Assembly (NCBI RefSeq): GCF_003334255.1
Contig: NZ_QOWU01000013.1
Source: Escherichia coli
GTDB taxonomy: Bacteria > Pseudomonadota > Gammaproteobacteria > Enterobacterales > Enterobacteriaceae
DNA: 64,000 bases
Reading direction: 5' to 3' (one strand)
Shown piece after piece: positions 31,565 to 43,484 of this stretch. The notes beneath the pieces are model-generated. The model saw only the letters and a list, made by a program, of their open reading frames with translations, had not been told where the DNA came from and made no database searches. Positions within the stretch are counted from its first letter, which is position 1. Every line of letters begins with the position of its first letter. Made by a program: the position numbers and the translations under genes.

Positions 31565-31597
31565 GGCCGCCATGTGGCGGCCTGAATTATTTTTTGT
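31565..31597 (+). terminator. Hairpin/terminator after yjiA (convergent with brnA)
   Basis: ggccgcc-atgt-ggcggcc hairpin followed by TGAATTATTTTTTG. Confidence 0.5.
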
Positions 31598-31889
31598 TCT
31601 GATCGCGCAGCATCGCTTCACGTAAAATTGCGTTCAGGCGAGTTTGATAGCCTTTACCAGGTCGCTTCAGCCATTCCATCACATCAGCATCAATACGCAC
31701 CGAAGCCTGGGTTTTCAATGGCCGATAAAACTTACCGCGTTCTGCGTTAGACCATTGCTCATCGCTGGAAGGTGGGATATCGCTGTAATCAATCTCTTCG
31801 TCGGATTTATTCGCCAGCGCCTTCAATTCGGCCTCATGCTGCACATCGAGTGTAGAGGAGGTCCCTCGTTTATGTTTAACCATGCTCAT
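31587..31889 (-). CDS. BrnA-like antitoxin (type II TA)
   Basis: About 100 aa from the ATG at 31889 (MSMVKHKRGTSSTLDVQHEAELKALANKSDEEIDYSDIPP...), GGAG ribosome-binding site 5 nt upstream; overlaps the toxin 3' end by 14 nt. Family assigned by resemblance, not alignment. Confidence 0.65.
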   Translation of the reverse strand: MSMVKHKRGTSSTLDVQHEAELKALANKSDEEIDYSDIPPSSDEQWSNAERGKFYRPLKTQASVRIDADVMEWLKRPGKGYQTRLNAILREAMLRDQNKK

Positions 31890-32163
31890 AGCGACTCCTC
31901 TCTTTACGATCTGCTTTTCGTGCACTGATGATTCGAATAATTTCATTTCCGCTTTCGAAACGGATGGTATGCGCAACCAGAATAACCACGATACCGTGAA
32001 CCACGCCGATAGTCTGCCAGCGATACTCACCGTTTTCTATGCGATCTTGCTGTGACAAATGTTGTGGATCATCAAACACCAACACCGCATCTTCAAAGCG
32101 GATGCCATGTTTCACCCGATTACTTTTGGCCTTGTTTGCATCCCATTCAAACTCCATTGGCAT
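31876..32163 (-). CDS. BrnT-like toxin (DUF497 ribonuclease family, type II TA)
   Basis: About 95 aa from the ATG at 32163 (MPMEFEWDANKAKSNRVKHGIRFEDAVLVFDDP...); toxin-first order with overlapping antitoxin, as in BrnT/BrnA modules. Confidence 0.65.
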   Translation of the reverse strand: MPMEFEWDANKAKSNRVKHGIRFEDAVLVFDDPQHLSQQDRIENGEYRWQTIGVVHGIVVILVAHTIRFESGNEIIRIISARKADRKERSRYEHG

Positions 32164-32178
32164 AGTTGCCATCCCTAA

Positions 32179-32190
32179 TTGTATATACAA
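32179..32190. promoter_or_regulatory. Perfect 12-bp palindrome upstream of brnT (candidate autoregulatory operator)
   Basis: ttgtatatacaa, 16 nt upstream of the brnT start codon within an AT-rich region. Confidence 0.35.
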
Positions 32191-32359: not shown

Positions 32360-33526
32360 GTGAAAAACTATAAAGTTATTACCCCGCTTTTTCCTACCTA
32401 TGCACAGGTTAAAGCTATGATGAAAGCCGTCTCAGGCTATTCCCTGAAAGCGGTACGCAATATGATTACCGCCATTCACGAGCAAACCGGTACGCCGCAA
32501 AAACCCGTTGACTGGTCGGAACCCGACCTGTGGATCAGCGAGCGCTTAACGGGTGAAGATGCCGACATCGCCCGTCGTATTTGGGATACCGATAATCACA
32601 TCTTGAACCCGCGCCACAGCTACGGCTGCTACTTATTCCTCAACTATCCCCAGTTTGATCTGATGGAAAGCACACCAGATGATACCTGGCAGCCCACCTC
32701 GCACGGGCAAAAATTCCTGCAAGATGACGAAAAAACGCTGCGTTCACTGGACGATCAGGAAGGCATTCTGCAACTTCTTGAACTATTAGCTGGCCGCGAA
32801 ATGTCGCGCCGCGCCGATTTATTGCCGGAATGGCAGGCCTTTTTGCATCAGCATTCGAAATTCGCGTCTGCAAGTTCAGTGAAAAGCACGCTCTACTCCC
32901 GTCTCTATAACCTTATCGACCGTGACATGGTTAACCGTGAAGGCATGAGCTATCGCATCACCGATACCGGGCGCGCCTGACTTGGAAAAGCGTTACCTGC
33001 ACGAAAAAGCGATCCGCGTAAAGAGCTGTTGGAAGCGGTAAAACGCTATAACGAACAGCAAAAAGAGCTGCTGCGCGAACAAATCAGCACGATGAACCCG
33101 TACAAATTTGAACAACTGGTCGGTCAATTACTGGAAGCAATGGGCTACGAGCAGGTCGAAGTGACCAAAGCCTCTGGCGATAAAGGCGTGGACGTGATTG
33201 GTCAGGTGCAGGTCGGCATCACCACCATTACAGAAGTGGTGCAGGTCAAAAGAATGCAGAACACTATCACTCGCCCGTATATCGACCAGTTGCGCGGGGC
33301 GTTGCCTTACCACAAAGCCATTCGCGGTACGCTCATCACCACCGGGAAATTTGCGGCGAAATGTGCAGAAGCGGCGCTCTTTCCGGGTGCCGCGCCCATT
33401 ACGCTTATCGACGGCGATCGTTTACTGGAACTGTTAATCGAAAATAACGTCGGCATTCGCCGCAGCAATGCAGTGGAATTGCTGGATGTAGATTTGCAGT
33501 TGTTTGATGAGCTGGAGATGGATTAA
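32360..33526 (+). pseudogene. Mrr-family restriction endonuclease gene interrupted by an in-frame TGA
   Basis: One reading frame from the GTG at 32360 to 33526, broken only by TGA at 32978-32980; the C-terminal part (...GDKGVDVIGQVQ...VQVKRMQNTITRPYIDQL...TTGKF...) is a typical Mrr catalytic domain, and translation across the stop reads as a continuous linker. Confidence 0.65.
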
Positions 33527-33589: not shown

Positions 33590-35198
<1,609 letters not shown>

Positions 35199-35209
<11 letters not shown>

Positions 35210-36590
35210 TGGCTTCAAGTTACCTCTAGGATGGAATTGTAAAAAACTGGTTGATTGTACAAAGGAGGGAAATATCTCTTATGGTATTGTTCAACCAGGT
35301 CAGCATCAAGAAGATGGCATTGGTATTATTCGTGTAAATAATATACAAAATGGAAATATTTACATAGACGATGTTCTGAAGGTTTCTCATGAAATAGAAA
35401 GTAAATTTGCCAAAACTAGGTTAGAAGGAGGAGAAGTACTTTTAACACTAGTGGGTTCCACTGGAATTAGCGCCATTACAACTAAAGCACTACAGGGATG
35501 GAATGTTGCTCGTGCCGTAGCCGTAATTAAGCCATGCGATGAAATAAGTGCAGAGTGGATACATATTTGCCTCCAATCACCTTTTACAAAATATTTTTTG
35601 GATTCCAGAGCTAATACTACTGTTCAGAAAACTCTCAATCTCAAAGACGTGAAAGAAATTCCATTACCAATTCCTCCACATGAGGAAAGAGTAAGTCTTG
35701 AGAAAATTTACTTCAATTTTGAGAATAGAATAAACTTAAATATAAAAATTAATAAAATCCTAGAAGAAATGTCACAAAACCTGTTCAAATCCTGGTTTGT
35801 AGATTTTGATCCGGTGGTTGATAACGCTCTGGATGCAGGAAACCCAATTCCGGAAGCCCTGCAATCTCGCGCCGAATTGCGTCAAAAAGTACGTAATAGT
35901 GCAGATTTTAAACCGCTTCCGGCGGAAATCCGCTCGCTTTTCCCAAGTGAATTTGAAGAAACGGAGTTGGGTTGGATGCCAAAGGGATGGCAAATTAAAT
36001 CATTAGATCATATTGCTAATTTCCAGAATGGTTTGGCTTTACAAAAATTTAGGCCGAAGAATATGGAGGATGATTATTTACCTGTATTAAAAATAGCAGA
36101 TCTCCGAGCAGGACAAATAACTAATGACGAACGAGCAAGAACTGATATTTCTGATAGTTGTAAGGTGTATGACGGCGATATGATTTTCTCATGGTCGGGG
36201 ACTTTGATGATCGATATTTGGACTGGTGGGAATGCTGCATTAAATCAGCATTTATATAAGGTCACATCAAAAAAATACCCACAATCTTTTTATTTTATGT
36301 GGACAATACAGCATCTTTCAAGATTTCAACATATTGCAGAGGCAAAAGCGGTAACAATGGGGCACATCAAAAAAGGAGATTTAAGTAACTCTTTCTGTCT
36401 AATTCCTACTTCATCGTTGATTACTAAATATGATAATATCGTTGGAGGATATTTAGCGAAGATTAAAAATCAAAGATTGTTAAATAACCAAATGACCGCC
36501 CTACGCGACACCCTGCTCCCGAAACTCATCTCCGGCGAGCTATCCCTGGACGATATTCCGGATCTCAACACCGATACAGAAGCTGCATAA
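35199..36590 (+). CDS. hsdS: Type I restriction-modification specificity subunit HsdS
   Basis: 463 aa; ATG overlaps the hsdM stop by 11 nt (GGAGGGG ribosome-binding site); two AT-rich variable regions separated by GC-richer conserved central and C-terminal segments. Confidence 0.85.
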
Positions 36591-36684
36591 CGCATTTTGC
36601 CCCTGTAAAATCAGGGGCTTTCTGGTAAGGTTTTCTACTGATACGGGAATGCTTACCAGAAATTAGCCAGGGTTGGAGCGCGAT

Positions 36685-39600
36685 ATGAGTCTCTCTTTCA
36701 GTGAAGCAAAATTAGAACAAGCGATCATTGAACTGTTACAGGATCAGGGATATCAACACCTGATCGGCGATAATGTCCCACGTTCGACTCTCGATCAGGT
36801 CATTATCGAAGACGATCTCCGTCATTATTTAGCGGCACGCTACCAGCCTGATGGCATTACTGAAGAAGAGATTCAGCGACTGATCAAACAGTTCACCACG
36901 CTTCCGGCCTCCGATCTTTATGAAAGCAACAAAACATTTTGTCGCTGGCTGGCAAATGGTTTTCTGTTCAAACGCGACGATCGGCAAAAAAAAGATCTCT
37001 ATATTGAATTGCTCGACACCCGGCATCTACCTGCCGCACTGCGCCAGATATTTGACGCTGAAGATGTCCCGTTGCAACAGGCGGCGGAACTCCCGCCCTC
37101 CTATATTAATCCGCCGCTTAACCGGATTAAGATTGTTAACCAGCTTAAAATCTCCGGTAAAGATAATCAGACTCGTATTCCTGACGGCATTCTCTATATC
37201 AACGGTCTGCCACTGGTCGTCTTTGAATTTAAAAGCGCGGTGCGCGAGCAGGAAGCCAATATAGGCGATGCCTGGAAGCAGCTCTGCAAACGCTATCGCC
37301 GGGATATTCCGCAACTGTTTATCTACAACGCGCTCTGCATTATTAGCGATGGTGTAAATAACCGGATGGGCAACCTGTTTGCGCCCTATGAATACTTTTA
37401 CTCATGGCGCAAAGTCACCGGTAATGAAAACCGTGAACAGGACGGAATTCCATCATTGCACTCAATGATTCAGGGACTGTTTCATCCGGTACGTCTGTTG
37501 GATGTGATTAAAAACTTTATCTGCTTCCCGGATAAAGCCAAGCACGAAGTAAAAATTTGCTGCCGATATCCGCAGTACTATGCCGCCCGCAAACTCTATT
37601 ACAGCATCAAGCAAGCGCGTAAACCTTTCGGTAGCGGTAAAGGCGGTACCTACTTTGGCGCAACGGGCTGCGGAAAAAGCTACACCATGCAATTTTTAAC
37701 CCGCCTGTTAATGAAAAGCGTGGAGTTTGCCAGCCCGACCATTGTTTTGATCACCGACCGTACCGATCTGGACGATCAGCTTTCTGCGCAAATGTGCAAC
37801 GCCAAAAATTACATTGGCGATGACACCATCGTTCCCGTTACCAGCCGTGAAGATTTGCGTAATCAACTGGCGGGACGCAATAGTGGCGGTGTATTCCTGA
37901 CAACGATCCATAAATTCACCGAAGACACCGAACTCCTTTCTGAACGCAGCAATATCATTTGCATCTCGGACGAAGCACATCGCAGTCAGGTTAACCTCGA
38001 CCAGAAAGTCATCGTCGATAAAGAAAGCGGAAAAGTGCGCAAAACTTATGGCTTTGCGAAATACCTGCACGATTCACTGCCAAACGCCACCTATGTTGGC
38101 TTTACCGGAACTCCGATTGACGCAACACTCGATGTCTTCGGTGAGGTGATCGACAGTTACACCATGACCGAATCCGTTCAGGATGAAATCACTGTACGCA
38201 TCGTGTACGAAGGCCGTGCGGCTAAAGTGATCCTGGACTCCAGCAAACTGGAAGAAGTCGAAAAGTATTACGAAGAGTGCGCAAACGCAGGCACCAATGA
38301 GTGGCAAATCGACGAAAGCAAAAAAGCCACCGCAACCATGAATGCGGTACTGGGTGATGAAGATCGGTTAAAAGCCCTCGCGGAAGATTTTGCCAAACAT
38401 TATGAAAAACGCGTAGCCGAAGGTTCCACCGTAAAAGGCAAAGCCATGTTTGTTTGTGCCAGCCGTGAAATTGCCTGGGATTTCTACCGCCAGCTTAAAG
38501 TTATTCGCCCTGCCTGGTTTGAAGTGAAGCAAGCCCCCGATGGCGTCGTCCTGACGGAACAGGAGCAGAAAGAGTTACCGCCTTCTGAAATGGTGAAGAT
38601 GGTCATGACGCGCGGTAAAGATGACGACGAGGCGCTTTATGATTTACTGGGCACAAAAGAATATCGCAAAGAGCTGGATAAGCAGTTCAAAAACGCTAAA
38701 TCGAATTTCAAAATTGCCATTGTTGTTGATATGTGGCTGACCGGTTTTGATGTTCCTGAACTGGATACCATCTATATTGATAAGCCCTTACAAAAACATA
38801 ACCTTATCCAGACTATTTCTCGCGTTAACCGTAAACTGGAAGGCAAAAGCAAAGGGTTAGTAGTGGACTACATCGGCATTAAGAGTCAGATGAACCAGGC
38901 ACTGGCAATGTATTCCCGCATTGATGCCACCAACTTTGAAGATATTCAGCAATCGGTAATAGAAGTTAAAAACCATCTCGATTTGTTGGGGCAAGTATTT
39001 TATGAATTCGACAGTCGGGATTATTTTAGTGGTGAGCCACAAGCGCAATTATCCTGCCTCAACCGCGCGGCGGAATTTGTTCTGCGCACTCAGAAAGTTG
39101 AACGTCGTTTTATGGGACTGGTTAAACGCATGAAAGCCGCCTACGACGTCTGCTGCGGCAGTGAAGCACTATCACAGACAGAACGTGATCATATTCACTA
39201 TTATCTTGCTGTTCGTTCAATTGTTTTCAAACTGACGAAAGGTGACGCACCGGATGTCACCCAGATGAATGCACGCGTTCGTGAAATGATTGCAGAAGCG
39301 CTAAAAGCTGATGGCGTAGAAGAAATTTATTTTCTTGGCGATAAAAAAGCGGAATCCATCGATATTTTTGACGAAGATTATCTGGCGCGAATTAACAAGA
39401 TCAAACTTCCGGCAACGAAGATCCAGTTATTACAAAAATTACTGGAAAAAGCGATCAGCGACTTCAAGAAAGTGAACCAGTTGCAAGGGATTAACTTCAC
39501 CCGCCGCTTCCAGGCGATTATAGATCGTTATAATGAGCGGCGAGAAGATGATGTACTCAACGGTGAAGAATTCGATACATTCAGTCAGGAAATGACCGAT

Positions 39601-39948
39601 ATTATCTATGATATTAAAACCGAAATGGGCACATGGGCCGATTTAGGTATTGATATTGAAGAAAAAGCGTTTTTCGACATTCTTGCTCATATGCGCGATA
39701 AATATCAGTTCACCTATGACGATGAAAAAATGCTGTCACTGGCAAAAGAGATGAAAAGCGTGGTTGACAACACATCGAAATATCCTGACTGGAGTAAACG
39801 CGATGATATTAAAGCGAAACTGAAAGTTGAACTTATTCTGCTTCTACACAAGCATAAGTTCCCGCCAGTAGCAAATGATGATGTTTATATGGGTGTGCTG
39901 GCACAGGCAGAGAATTTTAAAGAACATCATATGAGTGCTTTAAATTAA
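36685..39948 (+). CDS. hsdR: Type I restriction endonuclease subunit HsdR (helicase-nuclease)
   Basis: About 1087 aa from the ATG at 36685 (GGAG ribosome-binding site; ORF track starts at TTG 36673); Walker A GATGCGKS and DEAH box ISDEAHRSQ. Confidence 0.9.
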   Translation: MSLSFSEAKLEQAIIELLQDQGYQHLIGDNVPRSTLDQVIIEDDLRHYLAARYQPDGITEEEIQRLIKQFTTLPASDLYESNKTFCRWLANGFLFKRDDRQKKDLYIELLDTRHLPAALRQIFDAEDVPLQQAAELPPSYINPPLNRIKIVNQLKISGKDNQTRIPDGILYINGLPLVVFEFKSAVREQEANIGDAWKQLCKRYRRDIPQLFIYNALCIISDGVNNRMGNLFAPYEYFYSWRKVTGNENREQDGIPSLHSMIQGLFHPVRLLDVIKNFICFPDKAKHEVKICCRYPQYYAARKLYYSIKQARKPFGSGKGGTYFGATGCGKSYTMQFLTRLLMKSVEFASPTIVLITDRTDLDDQLSAQMCNAKNYIGDDTIVPVTSREDLRNQLAGRNSGGVFLTTIHKFTEDTELLSERSNIICISDEAHRSQVNLDQKVIVDKESGKVRKTYGFAKYLHDSLPNATYVGFTGTPIDATLDVFGEVIDSYTMTESVQDEITVRIVYEGRAAKVILDSSKLEEVEKYYEECANAGTNEWQIDESKKATATMNAVLGDEDRLKALAEDFAKHYEKRVAEGSTVKGKAMFVCASREIAWDFYRQLKVIRPAWFEVKQAPDGVVLTEQEQKELPPSEMVKMVMTRGKDDDEALYDLLGTKEYRKELDKQFKNAKSNFKIAIVVDMWLTGFDVPELDTIYIDKPLQKHNLIQTISRVNRKLEGKSKGLVVDYIGIKSQMNQALAMYSRIDATNFEDIQQSVIEVKNHLDLLGQVFYEFDSRDYFSGEPQAQLSCLNRAAEFVLRTQKVERRFMGLVKRMKAAYDVCCGSEALSQTERDHIHYYLAVRSIVFKLTKGDAPDVTQMNARVREMIAEALKADGVEEIYFLGDKKAESIDIFDEDYLARINKIKLPATKIQLLQKLLEKAISDFKKVNQLQGINFTRRFQAIIDRYNERREDDVLNGEEFDTFSQEMTDIIYDIKTEMGTWADLGIDIEEKAFFDILAHMRDKYQFTYDDEKMLSLAKEMKSVVDNTSKYPDWSKRDDIKAKLKVELILLLHKHKFPPVANDDVYMGVLAQAENFKEHHMSALN

Positions 39949-40086: not shown

Positions 40087-40109
40087 GTATTTAGCGCGGT
40101 GCGGATGTG

Positions 40110-40190
40110 CGCCAACACACCCGCACCGCTCATCACAATCACTATTTATGGAGAATAGTAATCATGACTGACACGCATTCTATTGCACAA
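40110..40190 (-). ncRNA. symR: Candidate SymR antisense sRNA (coordinates approximate)
   Basis: Placed by established knowledge that a roughly 77-nt antisense RNA overlaps the symE 5' UTR and start; an inverted repeat gcggtgcgg...ccgcaccgc (40095-40129) lies at the predicted 3' end. Not independently detectable from sequence alone. Confidence 0.3.
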
Positions 40191-40502
40191 CCGTTCGAAC
40201 CAGAAGTCTCTCCTGCAAATAACCGTCAATTAACCGTGAGCTATGCGAGCCGCTACCCGGATTACAGCCGTATTCCCGCCATCACCCTGAAAGGTCAGTG
40301 GCTGGAAGCCGCCGGTTTTGCCACCGGCACTGTGGTAGATGTCAAAGTGATGGAAGGCTGTATTGTCCTCACCGCCCAACCACCCGCCGCCGAAGAGGGC
40401 GAACTGATGCAGTCGCTGCGCCAGGTGTGCAAACTGTCGGCGCGTAAACAAAGGCAGGTGCAGGATTTTATTGGGGTGATTAGTAGCAAAACGCCACGCT
40501 AA
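40164..40502 (+). CDS. symE: SOS-induced toxin-like protein SymE
   Basis: 112 aa from the ATG at 40164 ([52 protein letters not shown]...); LexA box upstream. Confidence 0.85.
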
Positions 40503-42539: not shown

Positions 42540-43484
42540 TTAGTACTCGATCCATGGATCGCGCTTGCTTTCAGGCAAGGGTTGCTCTAATGCCTGCATT
42601 TGCTCTGCCGAAAGTCCGGTAATCTTTTGTATCCATTCAGGATCTGCCCCATTCTGCAACAACAATCGGAGGAGGTGCTGTTCCCCTTCTTCTTTCCCTT
42701 TTTCCATCCCCAACAGCCATCCATCATTATAAATTCGCTCTGCAATCGTCATTATTCGCTCCCTGTGTTGTGGCATTCGACGGGTAAGTTCGCTGATAAA
42801 CTTCTTAAAACGCGCTTCATCGCCAGTCAGTAAAATGTAATTTAACAGCGCGGTTATCTGGCTGTCATTAGCACACTCTGTAACCAGTAATAGTACCAGT
42901 TGATCGATAAGCCCCATCAGATCGCGCTGGCGAATATGCTTTTGGATCAACTCCAACAGGGCGACTCTGCGATGCTGCACAATCTCGTCGTCTGGCACGA
43001 CAGTGACATCCACCAGCGGGAACGCTGCGGTATAAAGCTTCCGTGCGGTGGTCGGGTCAGCAAATTCGTCCAGCCAGCACAGGGACCAGGGATAAGGACT
43101 ACGGCTACCGTGATAAAACAGCATCGGGATGACCAGCGGTAGCGGCCGGCGTTTATCATGCTCGATATGGCGCTGCATCACCGCCATGGAATATCGCATC
43201 AGGCGAAAGGCCATATGGATATCCTCGCGGCTCTGATGTTCAATCACCACATAAATATAGCCATCGCCTTCGCGGGTCTTTACCGACCACAGAATATCGG
43301 AATGTAGCGCCCGCAATTTTTCATCGACAAAGCTGGCGGATTCCAGTTTTAAGCTGTCGAGATCGCACAGTTCACGTAAATCTTTGGGTAAGTGGATCTC
43401 CATAAAATCCCGCGCGGTGTCAGGGTGCGTGAGAAAGGATTTAAATAATGCGTCATGCGGCGTGCTGGTTGTGAAGTTTGTCAT
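42540..43484 (-). CDS. rpnD: Rpn-family recombination-promoting nuclease (transposase_31-like), intact
   Basis: 314 aa ([36 protein letters not shown]...) typical of Rpn/YhgA-like proteins; corresponds to the locus recalled as split into yjiP/yjiQ in K-12. Confidence 0.8.

Follow-up and report, generated by a model that had tools for sequence, protein, structure and literature searches.

The hsdS gene of the 64,000-nt stretch of Escherichia coli DNA analysed here (hereafter the window) is very probably the specificity gene of a chromosomal system of the StySBLI/EcoMII family (type ID), whose modular target recognition domains (TRDs) reassort as cassettes and whose GC mosaic maps onto this architecture. 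A mosaic hsdS and TRD reassortment are textbook, well-understood biology, here in a well-studied E. coli defence island. The allele itself is already known: it is in RefSeq as WP_000535334.1, and the type strain of E. coli and some 30 further complete genomes carry it. There is thus little new in the case as such.

The features of the locus are as follows, all on the + strand.

32360..33526, +, Mrr-like restriction endonuclease pseudogene adjoining hsdM, with a TGG to TGA change at codon 207
33590..35209, +, hsdM, N6-adenine methyltransferase subunit, 539 aa (TIGR00497 hsdM, E = 2.4e-51)
35199..36590, +, hsdS, specificity subunit, 463 aa, identical to WP_000535334.1, with two Pfam Methylase_S domains
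35211..35750, +, variable block 1 of hsdS, i.e. TRD1 and the initial, variable part of the first long helix (aa 5-184; GC ~0.35, GC3 ~0.24)
35751..35990, +, central conserved region of hsdS (aa 185-264), near-invariant across alleles (GC ~0.47-0.49)
35991..36500, +, variable block 2 of hsdS, i.e. TRD2 and the initial, variable part of the second long helix (aa 265-434; GC 0.34, GC3 0.29)
36501..36590, +, C-terminal conserved region of hsdS (aa 435-463, LRDTLLPKLISGEL...) and stop codon (GC 0.54, GC3 0.60)
36599..36618, +, GC-rich hairpin followed by TTTCT between hsdS and hsdR, a terminator-like consensus match only, in a region where the count of such sites was not above shuffled expectation
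36685..39948, +, hsdR, restriction/translocase subunit, 1087 aa (TIGR00348 hsdR, 465 bits, over the curated cut-off)

E. coli ATCC 11775, S88 and others matched the window at 100 %, in chromosomal DNA. The hsd genes occupy the immigration control region, with yjiA on one side and symE on the other; more broadly, this region lies between yjiA and yjiN, and types IA, IB and ID are listed there (PMC12707154). Gene order was btsT-yjiX-yjiA-brnTA-mrr-like-hsdM-hsdS-hsdR-symE-yjiS-yjiR; yjiA lies upstream of the hsd genes and symE, yjiS, yjiR, rpn, mdtM and yjiN downstream. In the window hsdM, hsdS and hsdR are all intact. HsdM carries an NPPF motif at aa 288 and its closest PDB structure was 3khk (E = 7e-135). 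The hsdM stop and the hsdS start share an 11-nt overlap, and hsdR begins 95 nt downstream of hsdS at ATG 36685, a start preceded by GGAG at 36675 and in agreement with the ATCC 11775 annotation; its product contains GCGKS at aa 328 and DEAH at aa 429. The Mrr-like gene matched PADLOC PDC-S02 (E = 9.5e-100), and no PADLOC match was obtained for the other low-GC genes of the window. It is annotated as ‘internal stop’ in ATCC 11775 and is 97.9 % identical to the intact EC958 copy, a comparison that places the stop at codon 207. IS1 insertions were found within hsdS in several strains and, together with the Mrr-like pseudogene, they indicate that the locus can decay.

The closest known system is EcoMII of E. 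coli ST131 (EC958_0076-0078), which shares with the window its chromosomal locus, its neighbours and the order hsdM-hsdS-hsdR, and whose HsdM and HsdR are 99.3 % identical at the amino acid level to those of the window. The central and C-terminal frames of the two HsdS are identical or nearly so, whereas both TRDs differ (40 % overall HsdS identity), so that the recognition sequence must differ as well; the two loci also differ in the Mrr-like gene, intact beside EcoMII. The EcoMII recognition sequence, A(m6)AC(N4)CTTT, was assigned by knockout, and its HsdR is reported to be 92 % identical to that of StySBLI (Forde et al. 2015, PMC4659465). By way of these two identities, i.e. window to EcoMII and EcoMII to StySBLI, protein sequence comparison indirectly assigns the window system to type ID (StySBLI family). 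The founders StySBLI, EcoR9I and KpnAI, compared through the literature, are likewise enterobacterial and allelic at the immigration control region, with two variable TRDs.

Types IA and IC were considered and set aside. EcoKI (type IA) and EcoR124I (type IC) belong to the same class and follow the same subunit logic (M2S1 methylase, R2M2S1 nuclease), but they are only distantly related to the window system. Type IA was rejected on an EcoKI HsdM match of 69 bits (E = 3e-18), on the lack of EcoKI HsdR among the PDB matches, and on gene order (hsdR-hsdM-hsdS in type IA, M-S-R in the window). Type IC was rejected on low similarity to EcoR124, i.e. 136 bits for HsdM (E = 1e-38) and 87 bits for a partial HsdR match covering aa 148-515 only (E = 8e-24), and on the lack of any meaningful tandem repeat in hsdS, type IC being marked by short repeats in the HsdS central region whose number determines spacer length.

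The hsdS product, annotated in ATCC 11775 as restriction endonuclease subunit S and shared with S88, NCTC9008 and MS7163, has the organisation of an HsdS, with two Methylase_S domains (PF01420; aa 41-189, E = 1.7e-7, and aa 261-397, E = 3e-6), adjoining hsdM and hsdR, and TRDs alternating with conserved regions. Conserved and variable blocks were mapped in two ways. An alignment of 11 alleles gave invariant columns at aa 185-264 and aa 435-463, with a central region of constant length, and variable block 1 could not be aligned with other alleles. A megablast search of 5,426 E. coli genomes gave conserved stretches at ORF nt ~535/565-792/800 and ~1302-1392, the central region being matched by ~800 genomes at 90-95 % nucleotide identity. 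A preliminary description, made from the letters of the DNA, had proposed two variable TRDs embedded in a conserved frame, and the Pfam domains and block mapping bear this out. The AlphaFold model built from the 11-allele alignment had a pLDDT of 52, so that domain and helix boundaries are approximate, and only its secondary structure was used; within it, a globular domain is predicted at aa 6-158 (pLDDT 70-82). The two TRDs showed no relationship to each other (E = 0.51), on which ground an internal TRD duplication was rejected and the target should be asymmetric.

The same description had reported an alternation of AT-rich and GC-rich segments along hsdS, and measurement agreed: two blocks had a GC of 0.34-0.35 and two of 0.47-0.54. 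Over the segments as originally drawn, GC was 0.345 at 35199-35789 (GC3 0.25), 0.488 at 35790-35990 (GC3 0.40), 0.339 at 35991-36479 (GC3 0.28) and 0.514 at 36480-36590 (GC3 0.60), against 0.500 for the window, 0.515 for hsdM and 0.455 for hsdR; the true boundaries fall within about 40 nt of those drawn, and the AT-rich string cited as an example lies at about 35232-35268. The sliding-window profile that had been suggested as a check was not uniform but alternated (100-nt windows): GC fell to 0.24 at 35700-35799 and peaked at 35850-35949 (0.52) and at 36500-36599 (0.54). When blocks were defined by homology, GC was 0.344 in the TRDs (1068 nt) and 0.494 in the conserved regions (312 nt). Within-gene GC standard deviation was higher in hsdS than in any other of the 25 long ORFs of the window, and only 3.2 % of 500-nt windows across the 64 kb fell below a GC of 0.36.

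That this alternation might be a chance fluctuation, or an effect of amino acid composition alone devoid of evolutionary meaning, finds some support in the 150-nt GC range, in which hsdS (0.213) stands narrowly above the next genes (0.207). Composition does contribute, as the TRDs are poorer in GC at codon positions 1+2 as well (0.37-0.40 vs 0.50). Yet none of 20,000 codon shuffles of hsdS reached the contrast between TRDs and conserved regions (chi-square p = 2e-6), and this contrast was strongest at third codon positions, where GC3 was 0.24-0.29 in the TRDs vs 0.60 in hsdM and the C-terminal frame. Furthermore, the composition boundaries agree with the conservation boundaries mapped independently by megablast and the 11-allele alignment, and they are met again in every allele and in 85 of the 87 species surveyed (see below). 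The shuffles and the cross-species replication thus rule out this origin, which we consider to have practically no chance of being correct.

The exchange of TRDs, also proposed in the preliminary description, could be followed among natural E. coli alleles. The frame was matched by 868 of the 5,426 genomes, only 31 of which matched at least 80 % of hsdS (megablast). TRD1 was present in 36 of the 5,426 genomes (all at an identity of at least 99 %) and TRD2 in 41 (at least 98.5 %), both variable blocks occurring together in about 32; three genomes paired TRD1 with another TRD2, and in nine TRD2 stood beside a different TRD1. With the window hsdS denoted A+a (TRD1 ‘A’, TRD2 ‘a’), the natural combinations comprised A+b (L002, L003), B+a (L005-7), G+a (L008), B+x (EcoMII) and C+b (L016), so that ‘a’ is combined with three TRD1 types. 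The B+a alleles join the TRD1 of EcoMII to the TRD2 of the window and occur in strains 13E0767, EC-107 and O111:H8 7-58 72A; A+b is carried by FDAARGOS_1284 and 82.0311. Compared with the A+b allele L002, the window allele had no mismatch over ORF nt 1-699, identity extending up to position 35897 of the window; compared with the B+a allele L005, it had none over ORF nt 779-1349, identity starting from position 35977. Crossovers between alleles therefore fall inside the central conserved block, and whole-TRD reassortment at the hsdS locus by recombination in this block is directly demonstrated. Near-identical hsdM and hsdR (96-99.8 % nucleotide identity) were found beside many different hsdS alleles, which is consistent with subunit interchange within type ID.

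This crossover pattern is exactly that of the type IA hybrid StySQ, in which a crossover between StySB and StySP in the central region linked the N-terminal TRD of one to the C-terminal TRD of the other and gave a hybrid specificity (Fuller-Pace/Nagaraja/Gann/Murray, as reviewed in PMC3874165). StySQ belongs to another complementation family, and the recombinants of the window allele are natural isolates known from genome comparison. Since the conserved blocks are common to all alleles of the family (90-95 % nucleotide identity), they act as homology patches for recombination, whole TRDs being reassorted as cassettes. The genome comparison directly shows the window allele A+a to be one combination among several natural reassortants.

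Reassortment could also be programmed, as many hsdS loci in other bacteria switch phase-variably (PMC7672463), either by site-specific inversion of cassettes or by a change in central repeat length, as in the type IC systems EcoR124I/II. At the present locus this is very improbable. An inverton or shufflon was rejected, as the annotation contains a single hsdS and no recombinase, and no well-matched inverted repeat longer than 30 nt was found (those present do not exceed 79 % complementarity). The repeat-number variation of EcoR124I/II is likewise absent from the window hsdS, whose sole tandem repeat is an 11-nt unit in 1.9 copies (score 35) and whose central region is equal in length across all alleles.

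The preliminary description had further concluded that the specificity domains came from a source of lower GC, and this part of it stood only partially. On such an account, both AT-rich TRDs would be recent imports from a lower-GC donor, still unameliorated, in native frames. The gap in GC3 between the TRDs and both hsdM and the C-terminal frame speaks for it, as do the spread of TRD homologues over many phyla, low-GC Pasteurellaceae, Vibrio and Lactobacillales among them, and a published departure of hsd gene GC from that of the host, which fits horizontal transfer (PMC12255300). The search for a donor, made with each TRD protein and by tblastn against plasmids, found no near-identical copy outside Escherichia. 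The best relatives there reached at most 60 % (TRD1) and 63-70 % (TRD2) protein identity and came from taxonomically scattered hosts, so that a donor is not identifiable; TRD2 also shares ~65 % amino acid identity with its counterpart in L017, a distant type I system. Moreover, the TRD alleles among 14 sampled E. coli alleles of the family were all equally AT-rich (GC 0.29-0.37), and in this respect the window allele is nothing special.

The same scaffold was then surveyed in 87 species with a host-flank GC of 36-67 %, block boundaries being set at fixed offsets from one motif. TRD GC was lower than that of the flanks in 84 of the 87 species and lower than that of the central frame in 85, and it followed host GC with a slope of 0.95; the central frame was slightly above the flanks (+2.6 points). 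As the mosaic was present even in hosts of 36-42 % GC, it cannot be read as a general sign of a lower-GC donor, and this result warns against taking low-GC TRDs as proof of one. What remains in favour of import is the size of the offset from the flanks in E. coli, -16 points against a mean of -7.2 +/- 4.3 elsewhere, i.e. about twice the typical value and ~2 sd beyond the mean. Against it stands an orthologous TRD1 from a higher-GC enterobacterium, even more AT-rich: its GC3 is 0.18, although it differs at 41 % of third positions, and the adjacent hsdM has meanwhile moved to a GC3 of 0.74, tracking the host. This is contrary to a slowly ameliorating import. Overall, we regard recent import of both TRDs as unlikely.

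A steady state has nearly an even chance of being the correct account. TRDs, too divergent for internal recombination, would move only as whole cassettes under the universal AT-biased mutation pressure and weak codon selection, with K/N/I-rich products. The frames, in which homologous exchange takes place, would be prevented from falling below host GC by GC-biased gene conversion or by selection. It agrees with the near-universal offset and its slope, with the slight GC excess of the central frame and with the location of crossovers within this GC-richer block; orthologous TRD1 copies staying AT-rich despite near-saturated third positions, and the lower GC of TRDs at codon positions 1+2, point the same way. 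However, its mechanism is putative, and the pattern would look no different if TRDs had been drawn repeatedly and independently from a shared AT-rich mobile pool. In addition, the survey placed its block boundaries at fixed offsets from one motif, and the steady state does not account for the extra offset in enterobacteria. The stronger statement that the mosaic is a universal steady state of this HsdS family and not a foreign scar, with recombination and GC-biased conversion or selection confined to frames and TRDs drifting AT-ward, is put forward only tentatively and is rather doubtful. As judged from the sequence comparisons, the AT-richness of the cassettes nevertheless appears to be general among TRDs of this HsdS family and to be maintained, and not to be the footprint of one recent import.

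By analogy with established type I enzymology, each TRD would read one half of an asymmetric bipartite target, and the long helices that follow the TRDs would pair, thereby setting the spacing of the half-sites and docking two HsdM subunits. The resulting M2S1 enzyme would methylate one adenine per strand and, with two HsdR, would become an ATP-driven translocating nuclease cutting unmethylated DNA. The window allele would in this way define the restriction barrier of ATCC 11775, S88 and Symbioflor G strains. Its recognition sequence may still be uncharacterised: no motif for the WP_000535334.1 allele was found in the searchable methylome literature on DSM 30083, ST95, ST131 and ST101 (PMC4659465, PMC4825418, PMC8287963, PMC12255300 and an ST101 preprint), and the PDB relatives of the TRDs (E = 1e-7 to 1e-9) are too distant for the half-sites to be predicted.

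The geometry of the target is more amenable to prediction. In PMC12707154 and PMC3874165, methylated adenines 6 bp apart are given as the hallmark of type ID (Titheradge et al. 2001), and the targets of StySBLI, EcoR9I and KpnAI as CGA(N6)TACC, AGCA(N6)TGA and GGCA(N6)TTC, respectively. Because the length of the central region is invariant among alleles, the same 6-bp separation as in StySBLI is predicted for the window allele. EcoMII, AAC(N4)CTTT, would fit this separation provided that the methylated A lies opposite the first T in CTTT. The reassortants A+b, B+a and G+a form, with EcoMII (B+x), a ready panel for assigning half-sites to TRDs.

The hsdS ORF (35199..36590, + strand) encodes a protein of 463 aa. 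The alternation of AT-rich and GC-richer segments noticed along this gene in the preliminary description was reproduced by a 100-nt GC profile and by block statistics, and the block boundaries proposed there were correct to a few tens of nucleotides (the AT-rich string quoted was located at ~35232-35268).

Composition of hsdS by block (+ strand)
35199-35789, variable block with the first target-recognition domain (TRD1): GC 0.345, GC3 0.25
35790-35990, central conserved block (frame): GC 0.488, GC3 0.40
35991-36479, variable block with the second domain (TRD2): GC 0.339, GC3 0.28
36480-36590, C-terminal conserved block (frame): GC 0.514, GC3 0.60

For comparison, GC was 0.500 for the whole window, 0.515 for hsdM and 0.455 for hsdR. 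Variable blocks (0.344) differed from conserved ones (0.494) with a chi-square p of 2e-6; when the codons of hsdS were shuffled 20,000 times, no shuffle reached this contrast. Within-gene GC standard deviation was the highest of 25 long ORFs in the window; the 150-nt GC range was only slightly above that of the next genes.

The window belongs to the E. coli chromosome, and 7.5 kb around hsdS were 100 % identical to the type strain ATCC 11775 (= DSM 30083), and also to S88, MS7163, Symbioflor G1/2, G6/7, G8 and others. The order annotated in ATCC 11775 (tsr - btsT - yjiX - yjiA - brnA/brnT - restriction endonuclease pseudogene - hsdM - hsdS - hsdR - symE - yjiS - yjiR - rpn - mdtM - yjiN) is that of the classical immigration control region (ICR; PMC12707154). 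All three hsd genes are intact in the window: hsdM (type I methyltransferase subunit, TIGR00497) carries the catalytic motif NPPF, hsdS two Pfam Methylase_S domains, and hsdR (TIGR00348, above the curated cut-off) a DEAH box and a Walker A-like GCGKS. The hsdM stop and hsdS start overlap by 11 nt, and hsdR starts at ATG 36685, with GGAG ahead.

Features around the hsd genes
31587..32190 (-), brnA/brnT
32360..33526 (+), Mrr-like restriction endonuclease gene (PADLOC PDC-S02), a pseudogene directly upstream of hsdM
36599-36618 (+), GC-rich hairpin followed by TTTCT, in the 95-nt hsdS-hsdR spacer (consensus match only)
~36622-36659 (+), second inverted repeat of this spacer, seen by eye: CTGGTAAG...CTTACCAG
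40096-40129, inverted repeat just upstream of symE (14 nt, 93 % complementary, 6-nt loop)
40163..40501 (+), symE
42540..43484 (-), Rpn-family nuclease gene

The spacer hairpins hint at a possible expression of hsdR apart from hsdMS; the number of terminator-like sites around the spacer was not above shuffled expectation. The Mrr-like gene is interrupted by a TGG-to-TGA change at codon 207, leaving ORFs of 206 and 165 aa; it is intact in EC958 and most other loci fetched, and the same internal stop was found in ATCC 11775 and EC21Z-063. The three flanking toxin-antitoxin or toxin-like modules (i.e. brnA/brnT, symE and the Rpn-family gene) are of the same kind as those described at the ICR (PMC12707154).

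Membership in type IA was ruled out, as EcoKI HsdM scored 69 bits only, and so was type IC (EcoR124 HsdM, 136 bits; EcoR124 HsdR, 87 bits, with only a portion of the protein aligned). The proteins encoded at the same locus by EC958 (ST131) are identical to those of strain MNCRE44. The EC958 system is EcoMII of Forde et al., in which hsdM-hsdS-hsdR lie beside Mrr, HsdR is 92 % identical to that of StySBLI, the type ID founder, and knockout gave the motif A(m6)AC(N4)CTTT (PMC4659465). Between EcoMII and the window system, amino acid identity was 99.3 % for HsdM and for HsdR, versus 40 % for HsdS; therefore, as judged from protein identities, the window's hsdS is a specificity allele of the EcoMII/type ID system, its tie to StySBLI being transitive, via EcoMII.

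A megablast search with hsdS against 5,426 complete E. coli genomes matched 868, with at least 80 % of the gene covered in only 31. For about 800 genomes the match was confined to ORF nt ~535/565-800 and ~1302-1392 (90-95 % identity), i.e. the GC-richer blocks. Invariant columns in an 11-allele protein alignment were near-continuous over aa 185-264 and 435-463, with essentially none elsewhere. Both patterns bear out the reading of the mosaic as variable TRDs in a conserved frame.

Each TRD was also searched separately in the E. coli genomes (TRD1, 35210-35730; TRD2, 36000-36485). TRD1 was found in 36 genomes (each at least 99 % identity), TRD2 in 41 (at least 98.5 %) and both in 32. Four genomes carried TRD1 but lacked the window's TRD2, three encoding an intact 482-aa HsdS (L002 and L003 were retrieved) and one truncated by IS1 (L004). 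TRD2 occurred without the window's TRD1 in nine, including three with a 433-aa HsdS and the TRD1 of EcoMII (L005-L007), one with a third TRD1 type (L008) and one with an IS1-disrupted hsdS (L009). A 14-allele alignment revealed that cassettes reassort across the whole family.

Cassette combinations by locus (TRD1 types A-G; TRD2 types a, b, c, w-z)
Window: A + a
L002, L003: A + b
L005-L007: B + a
L008: G + a
EcoMII (L010): B + x
L016: C + b
L011: C + y
L013: D + z
L015: D + w
L012: E + c
L014: F + c

The window allele showed 0 mismatches to L002 over ORF nt 1-699 and was effectively unalignable from nt 776 to ~1305; against L005 it was unalignable to ~nt 585, then differed at 12 scattered positions over nt 603-778 and at none over nt 779-1349. 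This places the crossovers at window ~35783-35976, inside the conserved block in the middle of the gene; the classical experiments with StySB and StySP gave the same picture (review: PMC3874165). These natural recombinants, whose hsdM and hsdR are 96-99.8 % identical to the window's, directly demonstrate the TRD exchange that had been proposed from composition. Since the features of programmed switching were absent from the locus (long and closely matching inverted repeats, a recombinase gene, spare cassettes of hsdS, tandem repeats of any significance), programmed phase variation was ruled out in favour of population-level homologous recombination.

A second, distant type I system occurs elsewhere in some E. 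coli (NZ_CP020835.1 60690-65875; HsdM 47 % identical; order hsdM - hsdS - DUF4268 gene - hsdR), with matches also in G3/10 and LR536430. Its HsdS bears the frame motif FKSWFV(D/E)F(D/E)P, and its TRD2, ~65 % aa identical to that of the window, represents, by this resemblance, one and the same TRD type set in another frame.

The further proposal that the TRDs were acquired from a lower-GC source fails as stated, on four lines of evidence. Firstly, TRDs were AT-rich in all 14 E. coli alleles sampled (GC 0.29-0.37, GC3 0.20-0.30), with frames at 0.44-0.50 and 0.52-0.57. Secondly, no donor was identifiable among relatives of TRD1 and TRD2, plasmids included. Outside the allele, the best TRD1 relative was an 84 %-identical fragment in a related enterobacterium (P0002/L019), followed at 60 % or less by Thiomicrospira, Thiodiazotropha and cyanobacteria and, on plasmids, by Zymomonas (46 %); TRD2 was 99 % identical in E. 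marmotae, with further relatives in Vibrio and Aeromonas (63-70 %), Klebsiella plasmids (54 %) and Haemophilus, Lactobacillales and cyanobacteria (~50 %).

Thirdly, when degenerate DNA encoding the frame motif FKSWFVDFDP was matched exactly to representative genomes of bacterial and archaeal species, at least 120 of them contained it; hosts among the matches listed ranged over Burkholderiales, Planctomycetota, Prevotella, Haemophilus and Methanosarcinaceae. In the 87 genomes with a complete hsdS among the matches listed, TRD GC was lower than flank GC in 84 (mean difference -7.2 points, sd 4.3) and lower than that of the central frame in 85 (mean difference -9.8 points), and followed flank GC with a slope of 0.95 (r = 0.87, flank range 36-67 %). 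A foreign, lower-GC donor as the cause of TRD AT-richness is a weak explanation: the E. coli offset of -16 points lies ~2 sd beyond typical, and hsd genes as whole genes differ in GC from their host genomes (PMC12255300), but the mosaic is seen even in hosts of 36-42 % GC and therefore cannot generally mean such a donor. Fourthly, L019, a related higher-GC enterobacterium, is collinear with the window over hsdM and TRD1. Its hsdM has moved to GC3 0.74 versus 0.61 in E. coli (83 AT-to-GC versus 39 GC-to-AT third-position differences), whereas its TRD1 is at GC3 0.18 versus 0.24, with only 59 % of third positions identical; TRD1 AT-richness is therefore maintained, not merely un-ameliorated. We rather infer that TRD cassettes stay AT-rich as a steady state and that the frames, the site of exchange, have a GC like that of the host or higher. 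Cassettes that do not recombine internally would become AT-biased through the AT bias of mutation and through a composition rich in K, N and I; at codon positions 1 and 2, GC was 0.37-0.40 in TRDs versus 0.50.

From established type I enzymology, each TRD would read one half-site, and the long helices following the TRDs (predicted at ~aa 161-201 and ~405-444 in a model poor overall, pLDDT 52) would pair, set the spacing and hold two HsdM. M2S1 would methylate one adenine per strand, and R2M2S1 would translocate DNA and cut where the site is unmethylated. TRD1 and TRD2 are unrelated (E = 0.51), which implies an asymmetric target. As the central region is of invariant length among alleles, the target is predicted to follow the type ID pattern, in which 6 bp separate the methylated adenines (Table 1, PMC12707154).

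It is established that HsdS is modular, that TRDs reassort via the central conserved region, that the ICR houses type I families as alleles and that ExPEC carry type ID systems (PMC3874165, PMC12707154, PMC4659465). For the window's hsdS the observation and its main reading were correct, and little is new. The allele is RefSeq WP_000535334.1, carried by ~32 of the 5,426 complete genomes, the type strain among them. The HsdS frame is present in 16 % of E. coli genomes, which agrees with a reported 12 % for type ID at the ICR in Enterobacteriaceae. The allele's recognition sequence was not found in the searchable literature; it may well be in REBASE, because several carrier strains were PacBio-sequenced.

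IS1 (and IS3) insertions break hsdS or hsdR in several strains with window-type TRDs (L004, CP101263; L009, CP074005; G5, CP060065; C10, CP195940), and in EC21Z-063 IS1 cuts hsdS off after 789 nt, with a deletion up to mdtM. This suggests recurrent inactivation of the hsd system. IS1 favours AT-rich targets, and one may speculate that AT-rich TRDs are exposed to it through this preference.

Two further genes were noted in the window:
49123..51216 (+), 697-aa pentapeptide-repeat protein
53772..59012 (+), after yjiJ, 1746-aa inverse autotransporter (intimin/invasin-like)

The former lies in the lowest-GC stretch of the window (48900..51300; 500-nt windows down to 0.30), gave weak HetL, PipB2 and SopA-like matches, all under cut-offs, and, judged by annotation, is apparently missing from EC958 in the syntenic interval between yjiL and yjiK. 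The latter matched an N-terminal IatC-type model with 1126 bits, below its cut-off; at the matching place the EC958 annotation has no autotransporter gene of this kind, yjiJ being followed by kptA.
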